Source: Mytilus trossulus
Taxonomy: Eukaryota
Length of the DNA: 64,000 nucleotides
Assembly (NCBI RefSeq): GCF_036588685.1
Contig: NW_026963290.1
Span: 62,001-126,000 of the forward strand
Direction of reading: 5' to 3'
Both the position numbers and the translations under genes were made by a program. Below are positions 32,292-64,000 of this stretch, piece after piece. Numbering within the stretch: position 1 is the stretch's first letter; every line of letters starts with the position of its first letter. Under the pieces are notes generated by a model that worked only from the letters and a program-made list of their open reading frames with translations, did not search any database and was not told where the DNA came from.

Positions 32292-33251
32292 TCACTCTGA
32301 AAAAATGATATGACGTATTTTTAAAATAGGTATATAAACAGACAAAAACAATCTGGAATCGCAGATAATGCAATGCAATAAGGGACGAGGTTGGTGCGTG
32401 TTCTTGAACTTGGCAAGTATGTTGAAGATTTGTACAAGTTATAGTTTTCAAGTATAAATTTAACCGTATAAGACGAGTCGTAGCTTGTATAGGGTTTAAT
32501 GTAATGCACACTAGTTTCACATTAAATTTGTTCACATCTATACACCTTGTTAAGTTACCAGACTCAAGCTGGCAGCCACTTTTATCGGCCAATCAAGGTA
32601 GCAGCCACTTTTTTCCAGCAGCCAATTTTGACGATATGTCTAAAAACCAAAAAACTGCACGAGACTCAAACGTTCCAAAAATCGCTAAATCTTAGTTTAA
32701 TATAGTTGAACAGCGGAATTCGACAATTTCGCGGCTTGTACTGATTTTAAAAGCATTTCATTACGTTTTAAATATGTATGTGAAGTAAGCTGCCGGTTTG
32801 TTATTTGATTTTCGATATTCAATATACAACCGGTTGCAAAAAGTCGGTTCAATATCAAATTTTAGTTCAAAATTATTAAAAAGTATGATTTCATAGTTAA
32901 CAGGAGTGAAACATTATGCCCAAATAGTTTTATGACCCCTTCAAGCTGTCGTAAATTCTCGTTGTCCTCGAATATAAACCCTTATATAAGTTGCATATTT
33001 GTCTTTATGTAATAAAGATTTTTATCAATAAAACGACACCAAAGATTCAACAAAGATTTAATTTAATATATAACATATAAAACTACAATTAAAGCCGGCC
33101 ACTCTAAAAACATTTCAAAATATAAAAAGAAATATCTATGGAAAGCCAAAAAAAGAATAAACATATTGTAAAAACCTACGGGAGACCGCTCAGATGACAG
33201 CTAGACCCCTGGTGTTTCAATACTCCAAATGTAACGATATTATAGACTCTA

Positions 33252-33995
33252 TCTATAATACTAAAATTACGAGGTCCAATTTGTCAGCCGTCATCACGTA
33301 AAAACGACGAATCAAAGAATTCAACTTTATATATAACTAATATAGTACAAAGGTGTAGATTAAAAATTACACCACTCCAGGCCCTTTTGTTTTCCACGTA
33401 ATTAATATTGCCAATAATTAAGAAGTTCCGGGTCGAGTCCGATACCGATACCGATACCAATAGTATATTCACCTGTTACCTATTACCTTATCTGTACGTT
33501 CCGCCTCCGACAGGCGCACCAACAAACGGTATATTCAGGATTAATATGCTATATACACGGGTCATAATCACAGGGTTGAAACTACTAAATTGTCAAATTG
33601 TTACCTATTGTAGTATTTTAATCAGTAAGACTTTCTAAGATAACAATACGAATACTAAAAATCTGGACTAAAAATAAGGCGTATAGGTACAGTTTTCAAT
33701 TTGTTAGCGGGCATGACGTAAAACAGCGAATCAAAGAATTCAACTTTATTTATAACTAATATAGGACAATGCTGTTGATTAAAAAATACTCCATTCCAGG
33801 ACCTTTTGTTTTCCAAATAATTAATATTACCAATAATTGATAAGTTCCAGTTCGACGGGTTCAAACAGAGAAAACTGTGTATCTTATAATCGGCATGACT
33901 TTATCAGATGACAATACTTATACTAAAATAAGGCTTTCGCAGAGTAATATACTTTAATTCAGTCACGGACCCGCGATATCACGGGTGTGTTCTAG
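33252..33995 (+). mobile_element. Non-autonomous Helitron inserted in the left arm of the foldback element
   Basis: 5'-TC…CTAG-3' inserted between A33251 and T33996 with no TSD; subterminal hairpin acccgcgatatcacgggt; absent from the homologous right arm; internal degenerate direct repeat. Confidence 0.85.
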
Positions 33996-34059
33996 TAGTA
34001 TATAAAATTGGGTGTAGAGATTAACGTGACTAAAGGGATCTTGGATTATGGGTATTGAA

Positions 34060-35360
34060 CATACGTAAATGGGCAACTTTGAACCTCTGTGGTGGCCAGA
34101 CGGGCCCGGATCCCAGAAAAATATTTAAGTGGGGAATAGCTTGGATTAATATCTTTAAAATGAGCTAGGTCCGGTTCGGAACTTTGCCGTAGGTATATGC
34201 CGAAGAGTACCGAATGTGTAGTTGATATGCAAAATACGTAAATGGGCAACTTTGAACCTCTGTGGTGGCCGGACGGGCCCGGATCCCAGAAAAATATTTA
34301 AGTTGGCAATAGCTTGGGTTAATACCTCTAAAATGAGCTAGGTCCGGTTCGGAACTTTGCCGTAGGGATATGCCGAAGAGTACCGAATGTGTAGTTGATA
34401 TGAAAAATACGTAAATGGGCAACTTTGAACCTCTGTGGTGGCCAGACGGGCCCGGATCCCAGAAAAATATTTAAGTGGGGAATAGCTTGGGTTAATACCT
34501 CTAAAATGAGCTAGGTCCGGTTCGGAACTTTGCCGTAGGGATATGCCGAAGAGTACCGAATGTGTAGTTGATATGAAAAATACGTAAATGGGCAACTTTG
34601 AACCTCTGTGGTGGCCAGACGGGCCCGGATCCCAGAAAAATATCTAAGTGGGGAATAGCTTGGGTTAATACCTCTAAAATGAGCTAGGTCCCAATCGGAA
34701 CTTTGCCGTAGGGATATGCCGAAGAGTACCGAATGTGTAGTTGATATGAAAAATACGTAAATGGGCAACTTTGAACCTCTGTGGTGGCCAGACGGGCCCG
34801 GATCCCAGAAAAATAACTTAGTGGGGAATAGCTTGGGTTAATACCTCTAAAATGAGCTAGGTCCCAATCGGAACTTTGCCGTAGGGATATGCCGAAGAGT
34901 ACCGAATGTGTAGTTGATATGAAAAATACGTAAATGGGCAACTTTGAACCTCTGTGGTGGCCAGACGGGCCCGGATCCCAAAAAAATATTTAAGTGGCGT
35001 TAAGCCTGGGTCGATACCTTTGAAATGAGCTAGGTCCAGTTCGGAACTTTGCCGTAGAGATATGCCGAGGAGTACCGAATGTGTGGTAATTGTGCCTCGT
35101 TTCATTATAGACATCCTCGACCATTTATACAGACCTTTGACATATAACAAGGCCGTTATAAAAACACCCATTCATTAAAACGATAATGCAAAATACGCTG
35201 AATATGGACAACTGTAAACCTCCTTGGTGGCAAGACAGGCACGGATCCCAAAAAAAATATTTAAGCAGGTAATAGACCGGGTCAATACCTTGATAATGGG
35301 ATGGGTCTTGATAGAAAATTTTCCGTAGTGATATCCCGTGAAGTACTTAATGTTATGTTG
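34060..35360 (-). repeat. 173-bp satellite array (ApaI-type), left arm: ~6 monomers plus a degenerate inner monomer
   Basis: Period 173 (ORFs at 34165, 34338, 34511, 34684, 34857); monomer contains GGGCCC and GGATCC; reverse complement of the right array. Confidence 0.95.
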
Positions 35361-35389
35361 GTAAGGACAGTATTTCTAGGGGAAACATT

Positions 35390-36070
35390 GGTCCCTCATA
35401 ACAAGAAATGTGTCACGGTCAAAGATGCATTGCAAGCGTTCATCACACCATCATGGGTTGTTTCAAAGCTATGAACAGATAAAGGTGCTGAATTTTGCAG
35501 CAAAGAGGCAGAAGAGTTTCGTCAGAAACACAACATTGAACTGTACTCTACCGAGAATGACGAAAAAAAACAATGTTGGATGAGAACAATGAAAACTTTC
35601 TTTTTTAAATACTTTTGGCTTATTCTACGCGTACTAACATCGATGTGTTGAATATTCTCGTTCATCAATACAACACCTCCAAACATAGATCCATTAAGAT
35701 GACTTCTTTTAATGCTAGTTAAACTGAACCCGAACACAAAGTGTACGTAACTTTTATGGTAATCTTTTTCCATTGAAACAGGGTAAATTTAAAGTAGTCG
35801 ATACAGTTTGAAATACTTTAAAGAAAAGCGTGTTTAAAAAGGAATACATCCCTAGGTGGGCCAAGGAAGTCTTAACTTTGTCCCACGTATAGAACACTCA
35901 AACTCAAACGTATCGTACCATGGATTTTAATGAAGTCTACGTAAAAGGGTCCTTTTATGAACCTTAACTTCAGAAAAACGAACCAAGGGTGGTTTGAAAT
36001 AGATCTTTCTTCAATGGAAAATGTACCCTAAGTCCTTTAATTCTTGTATATAACAATCAGATTTGCAGTA
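35390..36070 (+). pseudogene. Maverick/Polinton retroviral-like integrase remnant with a C-terminal chromodomain-like segment
   Basis: Translates as L*TDKGAEFCSKEAEEFRQKHNIELYSTENDEK…, KFKVVDTV*..KKSVFKKEYIPRWAKEV…VKGSFYEP*LQK, and LQWKMYPKSFNS. These are Polinton integrase motifs, with stops and frameshifts. Confidence 0.82.
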
Positions 36071-36989
36071 ACAACCTTTTAGCAGCAAGTATAGTCTTGG
36101 GCAATTTGCACAAGATCATACAGGCTACTTTCCCTATGCGAGCAATATGGTGAAGGCTTAAACATCTGGGTTATATCTTTACCAGGTGAAGAACCACCTA
36201 CGGTTTTTGATCTCACACCCGCATGTTTCAATAAATCACACATCATCAGACTCTCTAGATCTTCCTTGTTTTGCTCTTAAACTTCCATTGACAATGGACG
36301 TTCCAAAAGTGCATCAATGTTTTTATGTGTCAAGTTTTTAATCTTATGTACCTGAAGTTTTTGTTGCAGAGTGGTCTTAAAGTCATCTACCTTTTTCTCA
36401 AGTTCTTTAATGGTTGTTATAAAATCTTTCTCTATTCGTTTTATAGCCATCTCCAATGGGTTACACTGGGATTGTAATATATTTCTCAATTTCCATAGAA
36501 TCCAAATGTGTCTGCCATGTGTTGTAGCAGATCTTGATTTCAAGAAATTTACTATTACGTAGGGAGGGAAGGAAGTTTTATAGTCTTCACACAGTGTGAA
36601 TTGTTGTCTCTTTGACACATTCCCCATTTTCATTCTCAACTTTATTTGCTAGTTGTCGTCCATTGGGTTACATGTCCCCTAACGGTAGGATTAAAAGGTT
36701 TGGAACGTAGGGTAACCCGCATTAACAAACTTATCAAATATGAAAAGTTTTAACTGTTCTTTCCAATTTCCCGTTGAGGGTGGCTTGTTTGGAAGTAGAA
36801 TTTTGTGTACACGTAACACTTATTTTAAGTTTTCGAGCCTCCAAACGGGTGCAAAATTGCAATCATCTTTCAATATCATTCATATTATTTTAACATATGA
36901 TAAATGTTGTTGTTCCTTATATAACAATATTTTAGAGGTTTGATTAATCCAGACATTGTTACTTCTATCACCACACGTCTCTAAGGTAT

Positions 36990-39330
36990 TCGTTTTCGTT
37001 TTCAAGTTGAAAATGTCCATGTGCCATTGTTCTGATTCCATCTTTTAAAATGTAACGTATGTCATCTTGTGTGTTAGTTTCTTAAGTCACCACGTTTTAA
37101 AGGTAACTGCGAATGACGTTCATTTTTCTATGACAACTTTGATAGGTCATACAACACGTCTGGTAATCGTTACACGGAATAATCTGTCGATTGACCTGTT
37201 TGGTTTTTCCTAAAGCTTTACTTGTGTTTTAACCATCTTTAATTCGATATTAAAACATCTTGCACGAAGCCATACAAACTCAGCAATCAGTTGACCATCA
37301 AATGTATCTTCAAACACGCCAATCACTATTTGCTGACGTTGGAATTCAACGATCGGTTGTCCGTACAATAGTTAAGTGTGTCAAACTTGTTTTGAATTTG
37401 AGATACCATATCTTTAGAAAGCCGTCAGTTTGAATTTAATAGACTAAATTATTAGTGTCGGTAAACAATAGTCGAACTCTTTGTCTCCGAAGGTTTCATA
37501 ATGAATGTCGTACATTAAAATCTTTGAAATGTCTAATATGCATGCTCCTAAATACACATGCTTGTCAAATTTGAGTTCAGTTTTCTTCATGTGTACGATT
37601 TTTTTTCCGGTAGTCACTTACTTTATATTCATCCGTTTAAGTATGTTTACCATGGTATTTCCAAACTTTGTTCATCAGTTTGAAAAAAATGGGGTTTTTT
37701 CAGACACGGTGCGAGTGGTAGTTATGGTTATAAGGTTAATATTCAGGTAAATGCAAATTTCAAGCCTACATGATTGTTTAAATTTTAACACATGATACAC
37801 TTTTGTTAATACCAACCCATTGGAAGAACTCTGTTTCAAATTTCTATTATAAAGAACATCCTTTACACCTTTGTCGGATTTGAATACGGTATACCAACTT
37901 ATGAAACTTGTTCATTTCTGTTTTCATGTAAAAACGATAAATCGTTAAGCTTATCGTAAAGGTCGACTGAGTAACCAAATCCCCTTCAGTTATGTACCCA
38001 ACCTCATCCTCCTCTTTCCACATGTCAATGACTTCAAAGTCGTCCACCAATTCAAAACCCTTGTTGGCTACGGTTCTGACATGACCAACACATACTCAAA
38101 GTTAGTACTACTATTTAAGTATTCAAAAAAAATCATTGGGAAGGTTGTGGAGGGTCGCATTCACTCATGTATTTGATGTTGGCCACCCAATGTCAATGGC
38201 TTATTTGAGCACAGTCCCCTCTCGTGCTGCTTATTCAAACAGAAGTAACATGTCTGGGTCGTGTAACAATTGTGATCTAACTTTGCTTATATTTAACGCC
38301 GAATCGTAAGCTATCCCTGATGACGTGTAATAATGAAATACGTCAAGGCCTGTAAGCTTTTAAACAAATGACACTAGTTTTCAAATATATCATCCAATTG
38401 CACATATATATAACCATGTCACCTCCTGGGTACACTTTTGTTTCTTTGTATTTTCCAAAATCATACCTAACGCGGTAGTAAAAAACATGAAGGTGTATTT
38501 TGTTGGTAAGCATTCCTGTAAGCTTTTGACTTGTCAGGTTGGCATGTGTCTATATGTTATAAGTAACATTAAACGTCAGCATAATTTACACAAGGAAATC
38601 GCATTTTACGTTTACAGTTGTATATCTTATAAAGGTATCTTCTTCAGGTATCTTGATGTTCACTCCAGCCCTCTAATCCCAATACTATGAATTTTCGTCT
38701 AAATTGTCTTCTCTCAAACAGTGCTTTTTACACTTTCGACAAAAAAACTTTAACATTGTAGATAACACTTGGGCTCTGAACAAATGTGACAATTTTTTTT
38801 ATCTAGCAGTATTGTTGTTTAGTTACATGTCTGCGTTGGTTCTGTCCTTTCCGATTATCTTTGAAATTTTTCTTGGGTTCTTCAATTTTTTTTCTCGTTG
38901 TTGTTTATTTCAACACCATCATACCCAAACACGTTAATGGAAAAGCTAGTTCTAGTATTTAGCCTTTAAAATTGGTCAATGTGTTTCAAACACAAGGGGG
39001 AAACTAAACCCTTCTGGTTCAACTCATTTTCACGTTGTTTTTTTTTATTTTTTGTGTACTTTATGTGTACTTTTCTAATTCACCTCTTTATGTGTACTTT
39101 TGATAACACAGCTCACGTTAATAATGGCATTCTTTTGTGCTAGTTTTACTGAAAGGCGAATGTAAGATTTACCCTTCAGGGGTACAATTTATCCATATGA
39201 AGGTGTAATTCTACAATATATGTCTTAACGGTCACCCCCTTCAATCACGCATGCAATATGCTATACTTTCATAACTTTTAACGTTAATTAAGTGTCTTAG
39301 TTGGTTGATTCAGTAAAAATAGCTTCAGTT
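36990..39330 (-). pseudogene. Maverick/Polinton (adintovirus-like) protein-primed DNA polymerase B remnant
   Basis: Ordered motifs on the minus strand: KGKSYIRL..AQKNAIINV (~39150), IDTCQPD (~38540), GLDVFHYYTSSGIAYDSAL..DPDMLLLFE (~38300), FFKLMN..FGNTM (~37670), HMKKTELKFDKHVYLGACILDISKILMYDIHY (~37540), LLFTDTNNL (~37455), DDIRYILKDGIRTMAHGH (~37030). Many frameshifts and stops. Confidence 0.85.
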
Positions 39331-40324
39331 GACCTAAAAAATGGAACAACTTTCATCTGTTGCGGGGTTGGGTTTTGCCAACTCTACTGGAAGCATCTGC
39401 TGTACCTTCGATGCCTTCTTCACTTTTGTGCTTCTGACATTTTACTAATCAAATGTATGCAAAGCACTTTGACTTGCCTAAAAACGGTTTAATGGTCACT
39501 GTAGTAATTTTCTACCATCTTTCACGTTAATAACAGATGTCTTTTCTATGTCTTTTTGAAGTCGTATTTCCTTAATTTAGATGTATAAGGTATACCACGT
39601 TTTTTTTTGCTTGTAGTATAAATTCATTTTTATGAAAAACTTCTGTACGGGTTCACACATGATGCGTTATGACTCCAATAAGCTTTACCAGTACTTCCTT
39701 TGGTTTTCTACTTTATCCTTTTAACACAAAATACTTTGCCAAGCGGGTACCCGTTTTAAATAGTAAACTTATAACCTGTAGGCCATCACTAGCCCTTATG
39801 AGACGTTGGGAATAATTTTCTGGTGAATACCTTCTCCGGAAAATATTTGTTTTCTTTATATTATTTTCATGCAAAATGTGACTAGTCTACCCAACTCAAG
39901 GTGGTTTTTGAAAAGTTCTTCTTATACATATTCCAGCAAATATCGAAATGTTCCGAATTGTATTTTTTTAAATGATTGTGCCTATTCAAACAGTCTGGAA
40001 AGTACTCGCTGTCATACCCAATCTAATGCATCATTTTTCTTAAAAATTGTGTTTATTTCTGTAACTCAACATACACTTATATATTCTTTACAAAAAAAAG
40101 AAATCAATTGTAAATTGTCTTGAAAGGGTTATAGGAAAATATGACTTTTTTATCAGCTAGGTATGACATCAGTTTTTCTCGGGATTTTGTCAATTTAGGT
40201 ATTTTTTAATATCTATTATTGATGCAATAAACTTACAGAACTTAGTGTAAATTAACAGCAGTCAGAATGTAACGTTGAATATTAACCCTGAAGTTTAAAG
40301 TAGCATCTCAGCAAACTTCCCAGA

Positions 40325-43262
40325 TTAACAACACATTCGGTACTTCTCGGCATATTTCTACGGCAATGTTCCGAACCAGACCTAGCTCATTTCATTGGAA
40401 TTGATCTGGACTACTCCTTGCTTAAATATTTTTTTGGGATTAGGGCATATCGACCATCGAAAGGATTCAAAGTTGTGTTTTAACGTACTTTTAAATTGAT
40501 CCACACAGTCGGTACTTTGCGGCATATACCTACGGCAAAGTTCGAAACCGGACCTAGCTCATTTCAAAGGTATTGACCCAGGCTATTCCCCACTTAAATA
40601 TTTTTCTGGGATCCGGGTCCGTCTGGCCACCACAGAAGTTCAAAGTTGCCCATTTACATATTTTTCATATCAATCACACATTCGGTACTCTTCGGTATAT
40701 CCCTACGGCAAAGTTCCGAACCGGACCTAGCTCAATTTAAAGGTATTGACCCAAGCTATTCCCCACTTAAATATTTTTCTGAGATCCGGGCCCGTCTGGC
40801 CACCACAGAGGTTCAAAGTTTCCCATTTACGTATTTTTCATATCAATCACACATTTGGTACTCTTCGGTATATCCCTACGGCAAAGTTCCGAACCGGACC
40901 TAGCTCATTTTAAAGATATTGACCCAAGCTATTCCCCACTCAAATATTTTTCTCGGATCCGTGCCCGTCTGGCCACCACAGAGGTTCAAAGTTGCCCATT
41001 TACATATTTTTCATAGCAATCACACATTCGGTACTCTTCGGTATATCCCTACGGCAAAGTTCCGAACCTGACCTAGCTCATTTTAAAGGTATTGACCCAA
41101 GCTATTCCCCACTTAAATATTTTTCTGGGATCCGGGCCCGTCTGGCCACCACAGAGGTTCAAAGTTTCCCATTTACGTATTTTTCATATCAATCACACAT
41201 TCGGTACTCTTCGGTATATCCCTACGGCAAAGTTCCGAACCGGACCTAGCTCATTTTAAAGATATTGACCCAAGCTATTCCCCACTTAAATATTTTTTTC
41301 GGATCCGTGCCCGTCTGGCCACCACAGAGGTTCAAAGTTGCCCATTTACATATTTTTCATAGCAATCACACATTCGGTACTCTTCGGTATATCCCTACGG
41401 CAAAGTTCCGAACCTGACCTAGCTCATTTTAAAGGTATTGACCCAAGCTATTCCCCACTTAAATCTTTTTCTGGGATCCGGGCCCGTCTGGCCACCACAG
41501 AAGTTCAGAGTTGCCCATTTACATATTTTTCATATCAATCACACATTCGGTACTCTTCGGTATATCCCTACGGCAAAGTTCCGAACCGGACCTAGCTCAT
41601 TTTAAAGATATTGACCCAAGCTATTCCCAACTTAAATATTTTTCTCGGATCCGTGCCCGTCTGGCCACCACAGAGGTTCAAAGTTGCCCATTTACATATT
41701 TTTCATAGCAATCACACATTCGGTACTCTTCGGTATATCCCTACGGCAAAGTTCCGAACCTGACCTAGCTCATTTTAAAGGTATTGACCCAAGCTATTCC
41801 CCACTTAAATCTTTTTCTGGGATCCGGGCCCGTCTGGCCACCACAGAAGTTCAGAGTTGCCCATTTACATATTTTTCATATCAATCACACATTCGGTACT
41901 CTTCGGTATATCCCTACGGCAAAGTTCCGAACCGGACCTAGCTCAATTTAAAGGTATTGACCCAAGCTATTCCCCACTTAAATATTTTTCTGGGATCCGG
42001 GCCCGTCTGGCCACCACAGAAGTTCAGAGTTGCCCATTTACATATTTTTCATATCAATCACACATTCGGTACTCTTCGGTATATCCCTACGGCAAAGTTC
42101 CGAACCGGACCTAGCTCATTTTAAAGATATTGACCCAAGCTATTCCCAACTTAAATATTTTTCTCGGATCCGTGCCCGTCTGGCCACCACAGAGGTTCAA
42201 AGTTGCCCATTTACATATTTTTCATAGCAATCACACATTCGGTACTCTTCGGTATATCCCTACGGCAAAGTTCCGAACCTGACCTAGCTCATTTTAAAGG
42301 TATTGACCCAAGCTATTCCCCACTTAAATCTTTTTCTGGGATCCGGGCCCGTCTGGCCACCACAGAAGTTCAGAGTTGCCCATTTACATATTTTTCATAT
42401 CAATCACACATTCGGTACTCTTCGGTATATCCCTACGGCAAAGTTCCGAACCGGACCTAGCTCAATTTAAAGGTATTGACCCAAGCTATTCCCCACTTAA
42501 ATATTTTTCTGGGATCCGGGCCCGTCTGGCCACCACAGAAGTTCAGAGTTGCCCATTTACATATTTTTCATATCAATCACACATTCGGTACTCTTCGGTA
42601 TATCCCTACGGCAAAGTTCCGAACCGGACCTAGCTCATTTTAAAGATATTGACCCAAGCTATTCCCAACTTAAATATTTTTCTCGGATCCGTGCCCGTCT
42701 GGCCACCACAGAGGTTCAAAGTTGCCCATTTACATATTTTTCATAGCAATCACACATTCGGTACTCTTCGGTATATCCCTACGGCAAAGTTCCGAACCTG
42801 ACCTAGCTCATTTTAAAGGTATTGACCCAAGCTATTCCCCACTTAAATCTTTTTCTGGGATCCGGGCCCGTCTGGCCACCACAGAAGTTCAGAGTTGCCC
42901 ATTTACATATTTTTCATATCAATCACACATTCGGTACTCTTCGGTATATCCCTACGGCAAAGTTCCGAGCCGGACCTAGCTCATTTTAAAGGTATTGACC
43001 AAAGCTATTCCCCACTTAAATATTTTTCTGGGATCCGGGCCCGTCTGGCCACCACAGAAGTTCAAAGTTGCCCATTTACATATTTTTCATATCAATCACA
43101 CATTCGGTACTCTTCGGTATATCCCTACGGCAAAGTTCCGAACCGGACCTAGCTCATTTTAAAGGTATTGACCCAAGCTATTCCCCACTTAAATATTTTT
43201 CTGGGATCCAGGCCCGTCTGGCCACCACAGAGGTTCAAACTTTCCCATTTACGTATTTTTCA
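40325..43262 (+). repeat. 173-bp satellite array (ApaI-type), right arm: ~17 monomers with higher-order structure
   Basis: Period 173; the inner monomers (40325-40520) are degenerate; variant order B-C-A-C-A-C-A-B-C-A-B-C-A. Confidence 0.96.
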
Positions 43263-46200
43263 ATACCCATAACCCAAGATCCTTTTAGTCACGTTTATGT
43301 GTACACACAATTTTATATTTTACAGAGTTTATAATATCGTTGCATTTTGGGATATTGAAACACCCCCTGGAAACACCAGGGGTCTCACTGTCATCTGGGC
43401 AGTCTCCTGTAGGTTTTCACTAGATATTTATTCTTTTTTTGGCTTTCCATGGATATTTCTATTTATATTTCTGAATGTTTTTAGAGTGGCCGGCTTTAGT
43501 TTTAGTTTTATATATAATATATTAAATTAAATCTTTGATGGATATCGAATATCAAATAACAAACTAGCAGCTCACTTCACATACATATTTAAAACGTAAT
43601 GAAATGCTTTTTAATTCCGTACAAGCCGCGAAATTGTCGAATTCCGCTGTTGAATTATATTTAACTAAGATTTAGCGATTTTTGGAACGTTTGAGTCTTA
43701 TGCATTTTTTTGGTTTTTAGACATATCGTCAAAATTGGCTGCTGGAAAAAAGTGGCTGCTTTCTTGATTGGCCGATAAAAGTGGCTCCCAGCTTGAGTCT
43801 GGTTGTTAAGTTACCTGTACATAAGATTTGTTCACACTTGTAAACTATATGTCATTTAAATGTTGATTACGTAGAACCGAACTCAAATTTTCGGACAACT
43901 TTTCTAGCAGTTAGGGAACGACCATTTGATTTAAAAAAAAAAGGGGGGGCATGGATTTTTCACAATTTGATTCAAAAAGATGATTAGAATGAACAAATAT
44001 TCTGAATCCAAAGTTTCCCCATACATTATAGTGTCAAATATTGAATTGGTACCATCGAAAAAAAAACTAAATAGAAACTTAGTAAACCTTAGCCGTATTT
44101 GGCACATTTTTTTGGAACTTTGGATCCTCAATGCTCTTCAACTTTGTACTTGTATGGCTCTATAGATATTTTGATTTGAGCGTCACTGATGAGTCTTATG
44201 TAGACGCGTTTAGCGTACTAAATAATAATCCTGGTATCTTTGATAACTATTTCAGACTGGAAGAGTTTTGAACAGCCAGCATGAACGGTTGTCGTATCTA
44301 GGTAAAAAATGTCAATTTCGAACTGCAACACATTCCAGTTATAATAAATGAATTAGTTACAACATTTACATGATTTAAGAGTTTGGAAGTGTTTAAAATT
44401 CCGTAATATATTAAATGCATGCCAATTTGATGATATTCATTATTCTGCAATAGTCAATATACGCATGTGCAAACAATTTTTATTGGATTAAGAGCATGGG
44501 TTTATTCACTAAGCGAAAAAAGCACGTCATATTAGAATGAGCAAATAATATACATGTATGGAAAAACAAAAAAGAAAACAAAACAAAAATGAAGAACTCT
44601 CCACCCCTACCAATCCAATACCATACTCTGTGGGTAAAGGTACTTTCTTTCGTATATTTTCCCAAGACGAACCAAAGTCACCCATCACTCGAAAGTCAAA
44701 CAGACTTCAGTAGCGGATCCAGGGGAGGGTTCCGGGGGTTTGAACCCCCCGTTTTTAGACGATCAATGCATTTAATGGCCGGTTGGACCCCCTTTTATCC
44801 TGGGTTCCTGAAAATGACTAGATCTGCCCTTCGACTGTTCAAGTATGTGTACACTAATGTGGTCATCGGTTAGCATAGGCGAATTCAGGGGGTGGGGGCT
44901 GGATCGCTCTCTCGTTGGTGTAGTTCCATTAATATCAACAGTTACATCCGCTGATATTTGATACTGTGACAGTTTCTATGTATCTATGATTTCGACCACA
45001 CACGGGTTCATTATAAATTATTCATTCTGTAAATGTAGTTCGATCGTTTGAGTTGTATAATAAATATTAGTATTTATTTGGATTCTACTTTATATAAATG
45101 TAGCATAAGATGCCACAATGGTGAAAATTATGTTGATTATATAGGGAATCACTGAAGCATGACTGGAGTGCCGCCTCCCCCTTTTTCAGTCAGTCAGCGC
45201 ACCCCCTTTTTTACTGATTAGATAAGAAATAGTTGTAATAACTGCATGCTTACCAAGATAAAATAAAACTAGAAAGCATGCTTTAAATCAAAAACAGAAA
45301 TCTTACCTTTACAATGGTCCGGCACTCGGTGTGTCCACTATAAAATTCACTATATTACACACACATACAGGTACTTTAAATAATGATCTTTAATGTACCC
45401 GATGTTTCCTATGATTAATTGGTGTTGGCCTGTGGATTTTTATAAAATTTAAAATCGATTTGGTAAATAAAGTTCCTGTGAATGAATTTATTGTAAACTG
45501 GTGAAGTGTCCTTAAATAAATGAAAGCTGAAAGCTTAAATATATAGTCCTCGAAAATGACCCCACTTAAGAAAATGATTTTACCTTGTTAACAGATTTCA
45601 AGAACGATAACTGTGAAATTTCTTGAAGTTACAAAAATAACAAAACAACAATTAAAGCATCAAAAAACAAAAAAAAGGCTTATGCATTCTTAATAACAGC
45701 ACACTAAAACTTAGTAGATATATATAAATATAAATGCTAATTAGAAATTAATGTTGCATTTTTTTAGGGGGTAAAATGTTAAGGAAGAACTGCACTAATA
45801 CAGGGTGGTGTTATTTCAATATATATACGTATACATACGAACAAACAAACAAACAAACAACAAATATTTTATTTGCCAAAAAGAGCAGAATAATTACAAT
45901 GTAATTTTCAAACATAATGTAAAGTAAATTAAAAATAGGTTAAACAAAGTACATAATATGATTGATTTTGATTTAGTTGATTGATATAATATTAAAGAAA
46001 ATGAAGAAGCCAATTTGTAATAATAAAAATATATAATATAATATGATCATAATATGACCAATTGTTTGTTACTCTGGTCCCTTTATTGGACAGCACACCT
46101 CATAGTATACTAATAATTTATTATATGTAAAAGAAATAACTTATGTAAACGAGTGTCATGAAATAAAAAGGGCCTTTATCATAAAAGTTCCAAGTGAAAG

Positions 46201-51110: not shown

Positions 51111-53143
51111 CCTGTATATATCCTTAAAATGATTTTCTCAAGGACCTTTGATACAGGCAATAGTAGATCAATATGTTGGTATACGGAGATTTCTGATCTA
51201 TGGTCGAGTTGTTGTCTCTTTGGCACATCCCCCTGATTCCATTCACAATTCACAAATATCGCCTTTATTTTAATACAAATATTCGATACTTTTCAGAGTG
51301 ATTGGTATACTCAACAACGAAATGAGAAATTGAACAGTTTGGTGAGTGGCTGACACATGACTTTTGAACGAATTAAATCAAAATATCTGTCCTCAAACTG
51401 ATTGTGATTCCAGTATTTAAATTTAGTGATAATAATAAAACCGTTAAACAGTGATTTTTGAGGATCAAAACACCACTTCAACGATGCAGTTCTATTATTA
51501 AAAGGACAATTAATTCATGTTTCAAACAACTAAGTTGTATTACGCAAGAATATCAATTTGTATTTTTTTATGGTTTGATTTAACACTGCAAATGTTATCC
51601 TATATACTGTTTTTGCTTCCTATTCTATCGTTATCCAACTGCCTTGACAAAGTAGATTATGTATCTATAGCAACACCGTCAGGACAAGTTCAATGTTTTA
51701 AAAGAACACTTAATACGACTGGTGATACTATATTCGAATTCCTAGGCATACCATATGCTTAACCCCCAGTACGACAGCGGAGATTCCAGAAACCACAACC
51801 TATATAGGTAACTGGATACATACGCTCAATGCTACGTCATTCGGTGCCGCGTACTCTCAAAACGTACCAGAATACGAAAAAACTTGGTATACTTCCGGTA
51901 TTTCAGAGGACTGTCTATTCCTTAACATTCACATACCGAAAGAGATCAGTAAAACGAAACTATATTCCGTAATGATATGGATTCATGGCGGTGGATTTGA
52001 AGGTGGTTATGGACATCAGAACGATGTAACAGATTTTGCCATGACAGGAAATGTTATCGTCGTTACTCTTAATTATAGATTGGGTGTGTTTGGATTTTTC
52101 GCTATGGACCATCCGGCCGCTAGAGGAAATTTTGGGTTATGGGATCAAAAAATAGCAATACAATGGGTGCACGATAACTTTGAAGCTTTAGGTGGCAATT
52201 CAAATTCCGTAACCATTTTCGGAGAATCGGCAGGTGCAATGAGTACATCGCTGCAGTCCCTGATTTCTGCAAACAAAGGCTTGTTTCAGAGAGTTATATG
52301 GCAGAGTGGTGTCCATAGCAGAATTCTGATGCGTAAACCGGATGCTGTCAGGGAATATGCGACAGGTCTAGCAAATAGAACTGGCTGTTCAATTGATGAT
52401 GAATATGCATTGTTGATTGTCTGAGAGATTTATCAGTCCAAGATCTATTAAGGTATACAGATTTTTATGCCACTGCTCAACTCGATAAAGTATACTACAT
52501 GTCGGACAATTAACCAGTAGTAGACGGTGAACTGTTTCCAGAAAATGCAATACTTTCTCTGGAGGACCCTACTTCTGACGTAGCTATATTCTTTCGTTCT
52601 CTGGGCATGATTGCTGGAACAACTTCTAACGAAGGCTCGGTATTAGTTATCTATTTATTTCCACAAATGCAGGAGCGATATAATTTTTCACTGAATGAAG
52701 GTATACCACACAGAGTGACTTGTGAAGAAGTTATAGCCGAATATGTTAAAACATATCTTAAACAAAATGAGGAAATAAAACGTCAATTGTGTGAGTTTTA
52801 CTTTGTAGCAAACTCTCCAAAAGAACAGAGCCTTCTTGCTACACATCTTTTAGCAGATATCATGTTTGTTTACCCAACAATAATGATGTTGGAATTGCAT
52901 TCTATGTATGGAGCGACGACATACCATTATCAATTCTCCATGCCAAGTCCAGAGCCGTGGGGAGGACCTTTTCCGTCTTGGTTCAATGGTAGTGGCCATG
53001 GAGACGAACTAATTTACATGTTCAGACCTGAAGCTGTATCCATCGACGGTATGAAACTGTCAAGAAATCTCATCCAGTATTGGACATCATTTGCAAGAAC
53101 AGGGTATGTAACACAGCTTTCTATTTGTTATAATATTGATTAA

Positions 53144-53640
53144 GAAATAATTCTTTCATGCCATGCTCTATGCTCATTTTAACATGGGTAGGCATTATAT
53201 TTGTTAATATCTTAATACCGAGCGTTAGCGAGGTATTAAATGTTTACAAATATAATGCCTACCCATGTTATAATAACATAGAGCATGGCATGATAGAATT
53301 ATTTCGATTCTTATAGGAATATTTTGAACTAGCGGACCTATAGTAGACGCTCGAAACGTCGTCATTTTGATTGATGAACAAAAACGTTATAGAAAAATCA
53401 ACAGTTTATTAATAAAGAAAAGAACAGAAAAATTGTAACTTACTTTTAGAATGTTTTTATTTAATTTTCTAGCGAGCAACACCAACAAAAATGTCCATTT
53501 GTATCTCTGATGTTGTTTAAAAATTCATCTGACGTTGCAATTTCAATTGTGACGTCAATCACGTGCAGCCCATGTTCTATTCGAATTTGAACATGGCTTT
53601 GTACCCAAAGCTAAAGAAGCACGTCATATTAGAATTCTAT
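53144..53640. mobile_element. Non-autonomous element with a ~160-bp terminal palindrome, in intron 1 of the pseudogene
   Basis: Inverted repeat 53144-53305 centred on gagcgttagcg; its other end (aagcacgtcatattagaat) also occurs at ~44520. Confidence 0.5.
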
Positions 53641-56600
53641 TTATGACGTCCTTATTAAAAAAAAAGCCGTGTTCTAATGAGCACAAAATATATTTGACAC
53701 ATGCGCACAAATTTACTGTTCATATTAAAGTTATTTCCATAGTTATCCAATAAAATATATACATAATTCAAGTAGCTTACATAAACTTTTATAATATATG
53801 TTATATCGAACAACATATATAAACCCTGCTCGTATTAACCACTCGGCCATCGAGGTCCCATTCTCGAAGACGTTACCCCTTGAATAAAACGAAAGGAATG
53901 AATGCGATATAGTTTGGCCAACTACCCCTCTCTAAACAACCAGTGAATTGACCGTGACTGTAATCTTTTACGAAAATTCCACTCAAAAGTAGTCAAAATT
54001 AGGTTGGTAAACATGGTTCCGGTTTATGGAAGTGACGCTTTTTTAAACTTGATATATAATTATTAACCTAAAAGTGTCTGAGGAATTCGATATGTAGCTA
54101 GCTGAAGCAACAAAAATGTCAACCGGACGTAAATCAACACATTTAACAATCAATTGATAACAAAGAACCTTAAAAATATTGCTCATCGCAAGTTTCATTT
54201 AAATGCAGTGTAAAATCCGCGAATTCATTTTGAAAAATAGCTAGCTTTAAAAAAACAAACTGCATTGCATATTTAATGATACATCTAACCATTAACTTCT
54301 AAAATATTTGGCTTTACCGTCCCAGTTCTTTATTTTATAGTTCTTCATTTCATTTTTTAAAACATTTTTGCTCTCTTTTATACGATGATAATAATTAAGC
54401 ATGTGTAAAGACCATGTGCTTTTATTTATAAAAGTGAAAACAGTGTGCATGTATCAAGATTTCTTCATTTACTCTTCCTGTTTGTTTCAGGTCCCCAAAT
54501 CAGTTTGGAGAAAGTGTTTACTAAGAACAATTTGATGAGAAAAACATGTATCTGGACATTGACGCTCAAATAACATTAAAAAGTTCAATGAAGCCAGATA
54601 CAATCAAACTTTGGTCTGGAATTTATTCCTTAATAGAAGTTGCAGAAGGTACCCCTAATCATATAACTATTACAACACCATCAGTATCTATAAGAGGTTT
54701 GAAAAGAACCGATCCAAAACATAGAGAAATTGTATTCGAATTCCTTGGCATAAAATATGCTAAACCCCCACTAGGACAACGGAGATTCCAGAAACCACAA
54801 CCTATAGATAACTGGATACACACGCTCAATGCTACGTCATTCGGTGCCGCGTGCTCTCAAAACGTACCAGAATTCCAGAAGACATCGTTTACATCTGGTA
54901 TTTCAGAGGACTGTCTATTCCTTAACATCCACATACCAAAATTGATCAGTAAAACGAAACTGTACTCCGTTATGATGTGGATTCATGGCGGTGGATTTGA
55001 AGTTGGCTATGGAATTGAGGACGATGTTACAGGTTTTGCCATGACAGGAAATGTTATCGTCGTTACTCTTAATTATAGATTGGGTGTGTTTGGATTTTTC
55101 GCAATGGACTATCCGGCCGCTAGAGGAAATTTTGGTTTATGGGATCAAAAACTAGCAATACAATGGGTGCACGATAATATTGAAGCTTTCGGTGGCAATC
55201 CAAATTCCGTTACCATTTTCGGAGAATCGGCAGGTGCAATGAGTACATCGCTGCAGTCCTTGATTTCTTCGAACAAAGGCTTGTTTCAGAGAGTAATATG
55301 TCAGAGTGGTGTTCATAGCAAAATTCTAATGCGTAAACCGGAGGCTGTCAGGGAATATGCGACAGGTCTAGCAAATAGAACTGGCTGTTCAATTGATGAT
55401 GAATATTCGTTCGTTGATTGTTTGAGAAATTTATCAGTCCAAGATCTATTAAGGTATACAGATTTTTATGCCACTGCTCAACTCGATAAAGTACACTACA
55501 TGTCCGACAATTACCCAGTAGTGGACGGTGAATTGTTTCCTGAAAATCCAATACTTTCTCTATAGGACCCTACTTCTGCCGTAGCTATATTCTTTCGTTC
55601 TCTGGACATGATTGCTGGCACAACTTCCAACGAAGGCTCGATATTAGTCGTTACTTTATTTCCACAAATCCAGGAGCGATTAATTTTTCACTGACTGAAG
55701 GTTTACCACACAGAGTGGCTTGTGAAGAAGTTATAGCCGAATATGTCAATACGTATCTGAAACAAAATGAGGAAGTAAAACGTCAATTGTGTGAGTTTTA
55801 CTTTGTAGCAAACTCTCCAAAAGAACAGAGCCTTCTTGCTACACATCTTTTAGCAGATATCATGTTTGTTTACCCAACAATAAAGATGTTGGAATTGCAT
55901 TCTATGTATGGAGCGACGACATACCATTATCAATTCTCCATGCCAAGTCCAGAGCCGTGGGGTGGACCTTTCCCGTCTTAGTTCAATGGTAGTGGCCATG
56001 GAGACGAACTAATTTACATGTTCAGACCTGAAGCTGTATCCATCGACGGTATGAAACTGTCAAGAAATATCATCCAGTATTGGACATCATTTGCAAGAAC
56101 CGGGTATATAAAATATATTCTTATAAGTTCCTTTTTTTCTTTTAAAGTTTCTCCGAAAAGGCTAGAATTTCTTCTGCAAAATCCAGAAAAGATCGACAGC
56201 TGAGCTTGAGAATTTGTGTCTAAAGCATATTGTCCTCCATTTTATATCTGTTTTGCAAGCCGTTTGCATATGTGTGTTTCTAGCTTCATTTGTTAATGGT
56301 GCATGAGTTGTCATAACTTTCCTGGTATCACATATAGGATAGTATGGAGAGAGATTAAAGTATCAGAATAAATTTACTCGTTGTATTTAGCAATACATTT
56401 CGGTCTTTTGGGTCATGAGTGCTCATTAACTTTAGTTTTTTTTCTCACTTTTTTAATCGAGCATAACGGTACCTGATGAGTCTTACATAGCAGGCAAAAC
56501 GCGTTTCAAACATACACAGTTAAAACCTGGTATCTTTGATGAGTGTGTTTTTTTTGGCATTGAAAATATGTAGTTATAATCGATTTCCATGTGTATCAGC

Positions 56601-60269: not shown

Positions 60270-63200
60270 CATGACTCAGTAATTCATGCACATACTCACT
60301 TCTCATCCGATACTTTATGCACTTGCTTACTCATGAACCAGTACCGTAAGTTAAAAAAAAAACGGTCCCCTGATTCGACACATTGGAGTCTGTCAATGAA
60401 ATGTTATATTAGATTTGCCATTTATACTTGTAGTTGAACGAGAAAGGGGTAGGGCCAATCACGCAAAGGGTCTAAATATTATAGAGTCTATATCACGAAC
60501 TTAGCCCAATTTGTATCAATAGTTTTTTCATAAAAAGTTGCAAGTTTTACATATTTTGTCAAAAGTTTAGCCTTATTCGTCGCAATTTTAGCTGGTCGAT
60601 TTCCACTGCATGAAATATTCAAAGGGAAAAATATATAACTATTAAAGTTAATTACCGAATGAAACGTTTTCGAATTTGTACCTGAATAACATGACGGGTG
60701 TCAGAATTGGAGCAGAATCTGCTTAGCCTTAAAAAAAAAACGTTGCTCTCTCTCAGTTTTTGGCGGGGGTCGTGTTGTTCAGTCTGACTCTTCATAGTTT
60801 TGTTTGTGGTGTTTTGTGTACTGGTTTGACTATTTCATTTCGCTTTGTGATTTCTGAATATTCCCTTTGTATGATGATTTTCGTATTCTTTTTAAGTGAT
60901 ATATCTTAAACCTTATGGGAATGTTTTATATGTATCTAAAATAATTTTTTAGGTCTGTCGTTTGTACATGTATGTAAGTGTTTCAAATTGACTATTATTG
61001 ACGTATTCGTTATAATATGTACAGTACTTACTTGTTGGACGATATTATGCTTATAAGCTACATTATATGGTGTATGACAAAATTAATATCTGTATTTAGA
61101 TTTGAACAATAAATATGGAATTATTGTAACTGTTTGAATATTTCGTTTATTAGACAAAGAATTATTCTTGTATAGTTAGTAATTTATCGGGTTTTTTTTG
61201 TTGTTGTTTTGTGGTATGTTTTTGTATAGATTCAATCGTTAAGATTTAATGATGTTTCAGTGTATTGTGTGATTGTCACATGCTTGCAAGTCATCCAATG
61301 GCAACTGTTACATTGATATTCTGGACGAGAATAAATTAACAATTCATTCAATATGTAGTCTACAAGGATTGTCGACCCGCATGCATATGAAGCCAGGTCT
61401 ATTTTTATTTTATTTTTATTTTACTATCGCAGCTTCTTATAATATGAATACGTACGTTTTGATTTTTACTGCTAATTTGATTATTGATTGAATCTGATTT
61501 TTTTAATTCGAATTATAGATTCAAGATATATGTTTATGAAAACATGGTTGTGATTTATTTATCCTTACCAGTTCTTACTCGGTATATGAATACTATTCGG
61601 TGGGTGATGATATTAACTATTAAATTTTCAGCATCCTCGGTACAAGTGTAATGCAGGACAAGGGGGAAGAATCGCTGCTCTGTCATGTTGTCTCCCCTTT
61701 CCCGCAAAAACGTTAATATTCTTAAATCGGGGTCCTCTCATCTTTCACTTGGGGAATGCCTTCGCTTTCGTGCATTTTATGACTTTAGCGTCTCTATAGG
61801 AATCTGGGGATTCTAGCTCAGTCTGGTCTAGGTCATACCCTTTTCTGGCGTGTCCCTCATCTGGACACTTGATCTTTCGAGGCCTGGCGCTGGTAGATAA
61901 AATACAATGATGATTCAATTATTCATTCTAAACAGCAATCTACATTGAAGTGTGATATGTGATCTGTGATGTTGGGAGGTTGCGGTCTTTCCTTTTTAAC
62001 CCCAACATCACGTGCTGATTTGAACTATTCTATTCACATTCACCTATGAAAATTGAGCGTGAATTTTGAATTTTCCATATGGTTGGTTACTTTTTATTGG
62101 TCAACTATTCTCTTTTTATGTTATAGATTAATATGATTGACATATATTTTATTTACGTAAAAGCAATTAAAGGATTTTCAAAATCTTACTTACTTTACAG
62201 AATTATTAAGTGGGCAATAGAAATACTTTTTATGATTATTTTACTACGGCAAATTACATACACATTTTTATTCTTTTAAAAGATGACAGTTTATTTAATC
62301 AATTTCTCAACGTCACATAAATGGCTATGATCAAAAGAACTCTAGAAATTAGATTAACTATATCCTTTACAAAAAGACGAAACTATTTATAACTTTATCT
62401 TACGTCATCTACTTTGTCGTGAGATTAAGAAATGCGCTTTAATTCAATTTTATTTATTTATTAGTTTATTTCTCTAAGTTTACTTTATTTTATTTTCCTT
62501 TTCCAACATACATTTTTTCATCATTATACAAAGACATCCTTTATAAATATAATTCAACATGCAGACACCTTATAAGTTCATATATTTCACATCCAATTTT
62601 GTATGGTAATATTCTTTACATTTAGCACAAAAATGTCGGCATACACCTCAAAAGCTAACAAAACTTTTAAACAGAATAAAATCAAGAAGGATATAGCTAC
62701 GATATCGTTGTCAGGTCATTGCATATTTTGGCTTTTATATTGATTCACTGCATCGGAAATAAACACATTTATTCTAAAACCGGTTCAGGTCCGTAGCCAG
62801 GATTATTTGGACTCACCGTACAGTCACAACAGTCATAATTCGAACAGAACGTTGACTATAACAGTTCTTATTTGTTTTCAAGGGGGTTTCGTCCGAACCC
62901 CCAAACCCTGGCTACAAGTTTGCCGTGACCAGGCAGAAGCTAGCGAACAATAGCTAGCGAACAATAAGCCAGCGAACAATAAGGCGATATATCGAGAAAC
63001 CAAAAAACAGAATAAGACAACAACTGCCGTTAAATAAAAAAATATTCAAAAAGGCAGAAAATCAGTTAAAATATAGCAATTTTAACTCAATTTTGAAATG
63101 GTTTTCATCCAATCTATTGATTTATCAAGTCGCATATTGTGTTACGCTAATATTCAGTACCACAATAACTCTGCATCTATCAACGGATTATTGGTAGGTG

Positions 63201-63291
63201 TAGGGCCACCTATGCACTCTCTTCAATTAAGAATGTATGTAAAAGAAGTCCTACCCTGTGAAATATAGCACCTTTTATGTCATTGTTAAAT

Positions 63292-64000
63292 CTAGAGCTC
63301 AAAATTTGAAAAAAATGTCAAAAAATTAGGGGGGTCGGCCTATTCCAGAGCTTCTAGAGAAAAATAATTAGGGGTGTCACGGGGAATGACTATATAGGTC
63401 TTGTAGAGGAGAAACAGGCGCTTCTTTTGCACTAGGTACAAAAGGGCGCTATGTTCAAAAATCTGAAACTAGAGCTCAAAATTCGAAAAAAATGTCAAAA
63501 AAATGGGGGTAGGGTCGGCCTATTCCAGGAGTTCTAGAGAAAAATAATAGGGGGTGTCACGGGATATGACTATATAGGTCTTGTAGAGGAGAAACAGGCG
63601 CTTCTTTTGCGTTAGGTATCAAAGGGCGCTATGTTCAAAAATCTGAAACTAGAGCTCAAAATTTGAAAAAAATGTCAAAAAATTAGGGAGGTCGGCCTAT
63701 TCTAGGACTTCAAGAGAAAAATAATTAGGGGTGTCACAGGGTATGACTATATAGGTCTTGTAGAGGAGAAACAAGCGCTTCTTTTGCGCTAGGTATCAAA
63801 GGGCGCTATGTTCAAAAATCTGAAACTAGAGCTCAAAATTTGAAAAAAATGTCAAATAATTAGCGGGGTCGGCCTATTCTAGGACTTCTAGAGAAAAATA
63901 ATTAGGGGTGTCACGGGGTATGACTATATAGGTCTTGTAGAGGAGAAACAGGCGCTTCTTTTGTGCTAGGTATCGAAGGGCGCTATGTTCAAAAATCTGA
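63292..64000. repeat. ~178-bp tandem repeat (satellite-like), 4 copies up to the window edge
   Basis: ctagagctcaaaatt starts at 63292, 63469, 63649 and 63826. Confidence 0.93.

Follow-up and report, generated by a model that had tools for sequence, protein, structure and literature searches.

The window, a stretch of 64,000 bp from Mytilus trossulus, contains an element whose ends are ACCAGACTC at 32557 and GAGTCTGGT at 43803, flanked on both sides by TGTTAAGTT (Table 1). The original prediction had described this segment as one unit with inverted ends and a flanking duplication, in full agreement with the ends found here and with the 94% inverted identity of the outer 265 bp. It had given the duplication as 9 bp, or 11 bp if the ends are shifted. 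The 9-bp length holds here and for 17 of 20 other pairs of the same family, whereas the 11-bp match at the window site is due to chance, since other pairs match at 9 bp; one of the 17 exact pairs, located inside a GT repeat, matches at 11 as well as 9. A Maverick-type reading, in which the ends are shifted to AG...CT with a 6-bp duplication, was also rejected, as the flanks then fail to match.

The window copy is one member of a dispersed foldback family with the termini ACCAG...CTGGT, which we call family A. Its arms consist, as had been proposed, of unique DNA and an array of a 173-bp satellite, and the unique/satellite junction is identical on both sides. A family A arm has ~760 bp of unique DNA before the satellite begins; the right arm of the window element is ~220 bp short. 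The 744-bp insert in the left arm, which we take to be Helitron-like by the end rules of that class, is missing from the copy of the window site on C6 and from other arms. Elsewhere in the window, 51731-53111 and 54733-56111 form a 1.38-kb direct repeat (93%, spacing 1.6 kb) with a small inverted repeat nearby at 53144-53305; the direct repeats are possibly the LTRs of a reduced element.

Table 1. Features of the window element and of a second, related element at the window's edge.
Feature	Position	Strand	Remarks
Left 9-bp target-site duplication TGTTAAGTT	32548..32556	+	Flank match; single copy in 6/6 host-repeat paralogues
Terminus ACCAGACTCAAGCT and three subterminal GCAGCCA(C/A)TTTT-type repeats	32557..32625	+	Predicted, likely transposase-binding end
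Left arm, unique flanking domain, first part	32557..33251	+	
Helitron-like insert (presumed), 744 bp	33252..33995	+	5' TC, 3' hairpin and CTAG; later arrival, outside the family unit
Left arm, last part of unique domain and satellite junction	33996..34060	+	
173-bp satellite array, 5.9 copies	34061..35084	+	
Inner satellite monomer at core junction, degenerate (~75%)	35186..35359	+	Junction common to 10 distinct copies
Decayed Maverick rve-chromo integrase	35388..36068	+	N-terminus gone, several frame breaks; 48-65% amino acid identity, E 1e-51
Remnants of two small Maverick ORFs	36388..36819	-	E 3e-6 and 0.004; clearer in other copies
Decayed Maverick protein-primed DNA polymerase B (pPolB)	37004..39790	-	E down to 4e-41
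173-bp satellite array, 17 copies, innermost ones degenerate	40331..43262	-	Includes a run of identical 3-monomer units
Right arm, unique domain (~220 bp deleted) and terminus	43263..43803	-	
Right 9-bp target-site duplication	43804..43812	+	
Left end of family D sister element	62928..64000	+	Terminus ACCAGGCAGAAGCT, short arm, 177-bp satellite

The loop between the arrays holds the predicted decayed Polinton integrase and pPolB, which we scored by comparison with database homologues and with the proteins of intact Mavericks in this genome. The intact references of this genome encode DNA_pol_B_2, an integrase with rve and Chromo domains, an A32 ATPase, and a double-jelly-roll capsid, and have AGTAGT ends. 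The ~5-kb window core equals the stretch of intact 13-kb Mavericks that runs from the integrase to pPolB, with the two small ORFs in between, and this homology and gene order of pPolB, the rve-chromo integrase, and their neighbors place the origin of the core in a Maverick/Polinton. The element lacks the AG...CT termini and 6-bp duplication of a whole Maverick, having ACC...GGT ends and 9 bp, and no intact pPolB, integrase, ATPase, or capsid gene was found in family A, which has broken pPolB and integrase only. In the window core, an internal deletion of ~680 bp near 38404 removed a part of pPolB that is present in most other copies. A Pfam search with 13 window frames gave a weak rve match (E 0.026) as its sole result.

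The window site is present twice in the assembly (C15 and C6), which could speak for a segmental duplication, an assembly artefact, or an ordinary Maverick that landed in a satellite array. We consider these explanations extremely improbable, as other copies have different flanks and different exact 9-bp duplications, and as neither a 6-bp duplication nor AG...CT ends are present. The original prediction had itself considered an artefactual inversion, and it had proposed to look for unoccupied sites. Contigs from two other, independent runs bridge the satellite/core junction, and six of six paralogues of the high-copy repeat in which the element sits carry the 9-mer singly; both findings speak against an assembly artefact. 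The second copy at the same site (C6:13864387) is 95-98% identical to the window copy and is likely the other allele; as it has ~3+3 monomers versus 6+17 in the window copy, the arrays appear to change after insertion. In this C6 copy, the right duplication has changed to a short palindrome.

Family A across the genome

When the 1.3-Gb genome was searched with the outer 265 bp of the element, 535 candidate matches were obtained, of which 40 were scored. The terminal 23-mer has 83 exact matches (0 for the control), and a further end-variant pattern gave three unpaired matches. As had been suggested for such a search, inverted pairs with a variable core or none were found. There are 21 further A end pairs, one of them unscorable; 17 of the remaining 20 have exact 9-bp duplications, all differing in sequence, and three have no 9-bp match (the C6 allele, C9:42.6M, and C17:4.9M). 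The pairs span 1.8-77 kb, chiefly determined by array length. Twelve of the 21 paired copies contain core lineage 1, to which the window core belongs, three contain lineage 2, five are coreless (1.8-7.8 kb, compared with 7.7-73 kb for core-bearing copies), and the interior of one was not read. Lineage 2 is ~72% identical to lineage 1 and includes a fragment that is presumably LTR-retroelement-like, which is the only part seen in one of its three copies. The A core was found at 33 scored places at an identity of at least 85%, and its junctions are the same in 10 and 11 distinct copies.

Family A thus has the long modular inverted arms with variable tandem repeat numbers, the dispersed copies, the target duplications, and the variable or absent middle part of foldback elements. 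The many copies and the exact duplications in 17 of 20 pairs confirm that a non-autonomous vehicle moves satellite and dead Maverick as one unit. The arms sort independently of the core lineage, and a copy may have two identical arms, indicating conversion and exchange of arms. A satellite 17-mer has 4747 exact matches, and among the 100 of these matches that were listed, all lie at most 26 kb inward of an end; scaled by the share seen in the loci read, the A satellite totals roughly 6,000 monomers. We also followed 22 single A ends: 14 continued as family arms, and eight were solo stubs holding at most 85 bp of the A end, possibly products of aborted repair or deletion.

The cargo decayed inside the vehicle

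Differences in pPolB between natural copies are spread almost evenly over the codon positions: the ratio of third to first and second positions amounts to 0.92 for lineage 1, 1.10 for lineage 2, and 1.22 when the two lineages are compared; among intact Mavericks, the same ratio is 2.86. Stops at reference codons 78, 549, 717, and 1001 are present in both A core lineages. The A core was broken before the two lineages split and decayed neutrally inside the vehicle. Four A copies from separate sites have cores that are 98.5-99.0% alike even though these cores are dead, so the enzyme that moves them must come from outside. The system also shows virus-like DNA that was multiplied long after its death by an unrelated transposon.

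Sister families with their own satellites

With one mismatch allowed, 258 ends were detected (control 3), 98 of which belong to one variant, and a further end pattern revealed 231 additional ends (control 0). This gives a total of ~490 related ends in at least five families, or, as a rough figure obtained by halving the ends, ~250 elements. The sister families are built alike, with an ACCAG...AAGCT end and short subterminal repeats, an arm of unique sequence, and arrays in opposite orientation. Exact 9-mer duplications flank 17 of 26 sister pairs, 18 match within one mismatch, and eight have no match; two of the matches represent one tandem duplicate.

Each family has its own satellite and core. 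While family A combines the 173-bp satellite with broken integrase and pPolB, family B has a 167-bp satellite and a shared ~7-kb core (e.g., L183:1640-9720 and L185:1620-8650), in which we found no Maverick and no protein match. Family C has a 346-bp dimer; its core holds a broken pPolB together with a neighboring ORF and matches ATPase weakly. Family D has a 177-bp satellite and a weak integrase-region remnant (26-37%, E to 2e-16); two D cores are 99.3% alike, and a Pfam search of 95 short frames from B and D cores gave no match. The D element that begins in the window is 12.9 kb long, ends at C15:137785, and has an exact 9-bp duplication, an inner inverted domain, and an integrase remnant. 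Family F, which includes E as a variant, has a 345-bp dimer and most of a Maverick in five of five copies. The F core keeps the collinear order of an intact Maverick, with which it shares 70-89% identity outside pPolB; it has no native Maverick ends, and pPolB, integrase, ATPase, and capsid are all present but broken. Maverick remnants are therefore found in four of five families, one of which has a nearly whole decayed Maverick. The chimera of the original prediction is thus real, but it is no one-off, since sister families carry different Mavericks.

The satellites of families A, B, C, and F have the motif CCCTACGGCAA in common, which is not found in D, and the B and F satellites align at 66%. 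The related termini together with this motif indicate that the vehicles have one ancestor. In the C cores (L191, L193, and L201), we found the remnant (68%) of an arm like that of family A as well as a piece in common with the inner domain of D; the elements thus insert into one another or recombine. A scan of viral contigs gave no matches, and a metagenome scan gave three matches in bacterial-looking contigs without arms or satellite, which we regard as chance.

Evidence for separate Maverick captures

Given the common ancestry of the vehicles and the exchange of parts between elements, a single early capture, made before the families separated, with long decay and recombination with other Mavericks afterwards, could in principle account for all cores. 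Three results make this distinctly unlikely. Firstly, between families the pPolB third positions differ by 55-70%, with ratios of 1.3-2.2; the windows compared were filtered by likeness to the reference, which raises these ratios somewhat, and the 1.22 within A gives the effect size at lower divergence. This third-position excess indicates that the source Mavericks diverged while still coding. Secondly, hardly any stops are common: two positions are shared between families, one of them by F and its variant E; among A, C, and F, the number is one. Thirdly, a single clade of the family cores was rejected (p-AU 5.8e-59; 26 rows after removal of 19 references and four cores). Trees of pPolB were built from these 26 rows and, with FastTree, from all rows; A joins the Mytilus reference group (97), F joins P0068 (97), and C has no firm position. 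Both the rejection and the placements carry the qualification that guide proteins served to map the rows and may bias where these fall. It is therefore likely that the sister families picked up different Mavericks separately, and we infer a minimum of two captures, with three or four being likely.

The arms might also be the former working ends of live Maverick-Mutator hybrids of the Teratorn type, with the present families as dead descendants of several such hybrids. The Maverick DNA in four of five families would fit this view, as would the nearly whole Maverick without native ends in F, and the divergence of the cores under selection between families is compatible with it whether it occurred before or after they joined the arms. 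We nevertheless judge such hybrids unlikely. Every core examined is broken and none has a transposase remnant, the non-polymerase genes of F find their nearest match in an ordinary Maverick that has AGTAGT ends, and none of the seven intact Mavericks of this genome has these ends, motifs, or satellites. Likewise, the combination of intact viral genes with an own cut-and-paste transposase that defines a Teratorn-like fusion was not found in the copies read.

Most intact Mavericks here have AGTAG-type ends and a ~6-bp duplication. Maverick terminal repeats were not found in any core examined, so that acquisition by Maverick insertion is a putative route. One Maverick-type family (e.g., C5:88031618) has a 1253-aa pPolB frame and terminal repeats of 585 bp with a different sequence; its many copies are nearly equal, and it has likely expanded recently.

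Transposase and mechanism

The original prediction had assigned the vehicle to Mutator/Foldback. The modular arms support the foldback part of this assignment. Regarding the Mutator part, duplications in the Mutator/MULE range of 9-11 bp flank 17 of 20 A pairs and 17 of 26 sister pairs, and foldback build and duplication length suggest a Mutator-type enzyme by comparison with described elements (PMC4079207, PMC3169594). None of the 20 PF10551 loci (of 266 candidates) and 20 PF20700 loci (of 1043 candidates) inspected had matching ends, motif clusters, or satellite; with no matching transposase in these 40 loci, Mutator membership rests on structure and duplication length. There was also no Mutator remnant in any element interior searched; one PF10551 match lies 16 kb from an end, beside a truncated stub. 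By analogy, a Mutator-type transposase acting in trans likely moves the families.

A different foldback-type element (L111:886-9464) with ~1-kb repetitive arms contains two PF10551 frames, so foldbacks with a transposase do exist in this genome. The PF20700 Mutator-like genes form head-to-tail series of equally scoring members, spaced at ~4.0-4.7 kb (C1:22.31-22.38M, C1:16.0M, C1:55.0M, C303, and C504), which are tandem transposon arrays.

In our model, a non-autonomous foldback with satellite arms would be cut and pasted on many chromosomes by an outside Mutator-type transposase, which would bind the shared terminal and subterminal motifs. Each family would gain a Maverick at its center, through insertion or when the gap left by excision is repaired, and the captured Maverick would then lose its own ends. 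The resulting unique spacer of 5-13 kb would break the long palindrome and let the arrays grow, and such copies would likely be favored; the short coreless A copies (n=5) weakly suggest this spacer advantage, with the caveat that assemblers may drop long palindromes. Movement as a unit, the 9-bp duplication, array length change in place, and arm exchange independent of the cores are observed directly. As a whole, we consider it probable that this is a foldback DNA transposon, likely Mutator-mobilized, that holds a dead Maverick segment between satellite arms and belongs to a group of at least five families, four of them with differing Maverick sources.

Comparison with known systems

A precedent for a foldback that gives rise to a satellite is the non-autonomous Tetris of Drosophila virilis, in whose long arms, according to the accessible text, a unique flanking domain of up to 866 bp is followed by ~220-bp tandem repeats that seeded a satellite, and which has 8-10-bp duplications and was placed in Mutator on these grounds, with no transposase found (PMC4079207). 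For Tetris, that text describes three complete copies with a non-coding middle, whereas the mussel has numerous pairs, the longest of 77 kb, and Maverick cores, and its families, five or more, have separate satellites. The Tm1/Phantom Mutator-Foldback elements likewise have composite inverted repeats and mostly 9-bp duplications and are mainly non-autonomous; Tm1, in contrast to what we found in the mussel, has a transposase-bearing member, and the accessible Tm1/Phantom text includes neither satellite expansion nor viral cargo (PMC3169594). The msft-1/tlpr-1 MULE of Caenorhabditis briggsae has 870-bp inverted repeats and DNA proposed to be captured from a Maverick; as far as the accessible text goes, it represents one functional cargo gene, one event, and an own transposase, as opposed to dead replication and structural genes, repeated capture, and satellites in the mussel (10.1101/2022.07.12.499685). 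Pack-MULEs hold foreign DNA between inverted repeats and are moved in trans, and Teratorn is a virus genome framed by cut-and-paste transposon ends; in the part of the source available, the former carry plant gene fragments and the latter combines an intact herpesvirus with a piggyBac transposase of its own (PMC6431247). Compared with Mavericks/Polintons themselves, core genes and order match the intact ones of this genome, but ends, duplication length, and mobilization differ, and every gene examined is broken. We therefore see Tetris and the msft-1 MULE as partial precedents. The vehicle works like a Mutator/foldback element, of which it is a putative member, and stands out by its scale, its set of satellites, and the probable recurrence of Maverick capture.

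No such element is mentioned in the accessible parts of a survey of bivalve transposons (PMC10294476), of papers on the satellites of an oyster (PMC11136912) and of the golden mussel (PMC12818792), or of three reviews (PMC12628747, PMC9659126, and PMC5718144). The literature searched, outside the scope of which lay most subscription journals and Repbase, contained no description of this system or of repeated whole-Maverick capture.

With 123 pPolB candidates in 1.3 Gb, Mavericks are rare; that so scarce a class should be captured repeatedly would require a mechanism of targeting or selection. Judged from sequence, hosts might keep and spread the units because inverted arms around Maverick pieces could give rise to small RNAs that silence live Mavericks. 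The non-random cargo, with rare Mavericks in four of five cores, is the sole point in favor of this idea, which we regard as very unlikely, given that many copies are coreless and that the A core is now far from live families (33-65% amino acid identity). A broader reading, which we put forward tentatively and hold to be possible rather than probable, is that of a giant foldback superfamily with a specific recurring route for trapping Mavericks, which would also be a source of several related ~170-bp satellites and a mobile archive of Maverick invasions.

The system provides a direct and countable case of satellite families that arise and spread inside transposon arms, each satellite being tied to its own vehicle, so that the origin of a satellite library becomes testable in one genome. 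In repeat annotation, virus-like DNA that is multiplied after death would make Mavericks seem more numerous than they are and lead dating astray. Mussels are known for structural variation, of which the ~250 elements, reaching 77 kb and bearing long inverted repeats, are plausible sources.

The 173-bp satellite of family A probably corresponds to the ApaI satellite of Mytilus, which was reportedly described from Mytilus edulis by Ruiz-Lara in 1992 and is said to have this monomer length and enzyme site. The agreement concerns length and site only, the GGGCCC site being present in 6 of ~6 (left) and 9 of ~17 (right) window monomers, and no transposon link of the ApaI satellite was found in the literature searched. 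The satellite also forms higher-order periods, of 866 bp (five monomers) in the copy at C1:22157259-22168708 and of three monomers at window positions 40500-43262.
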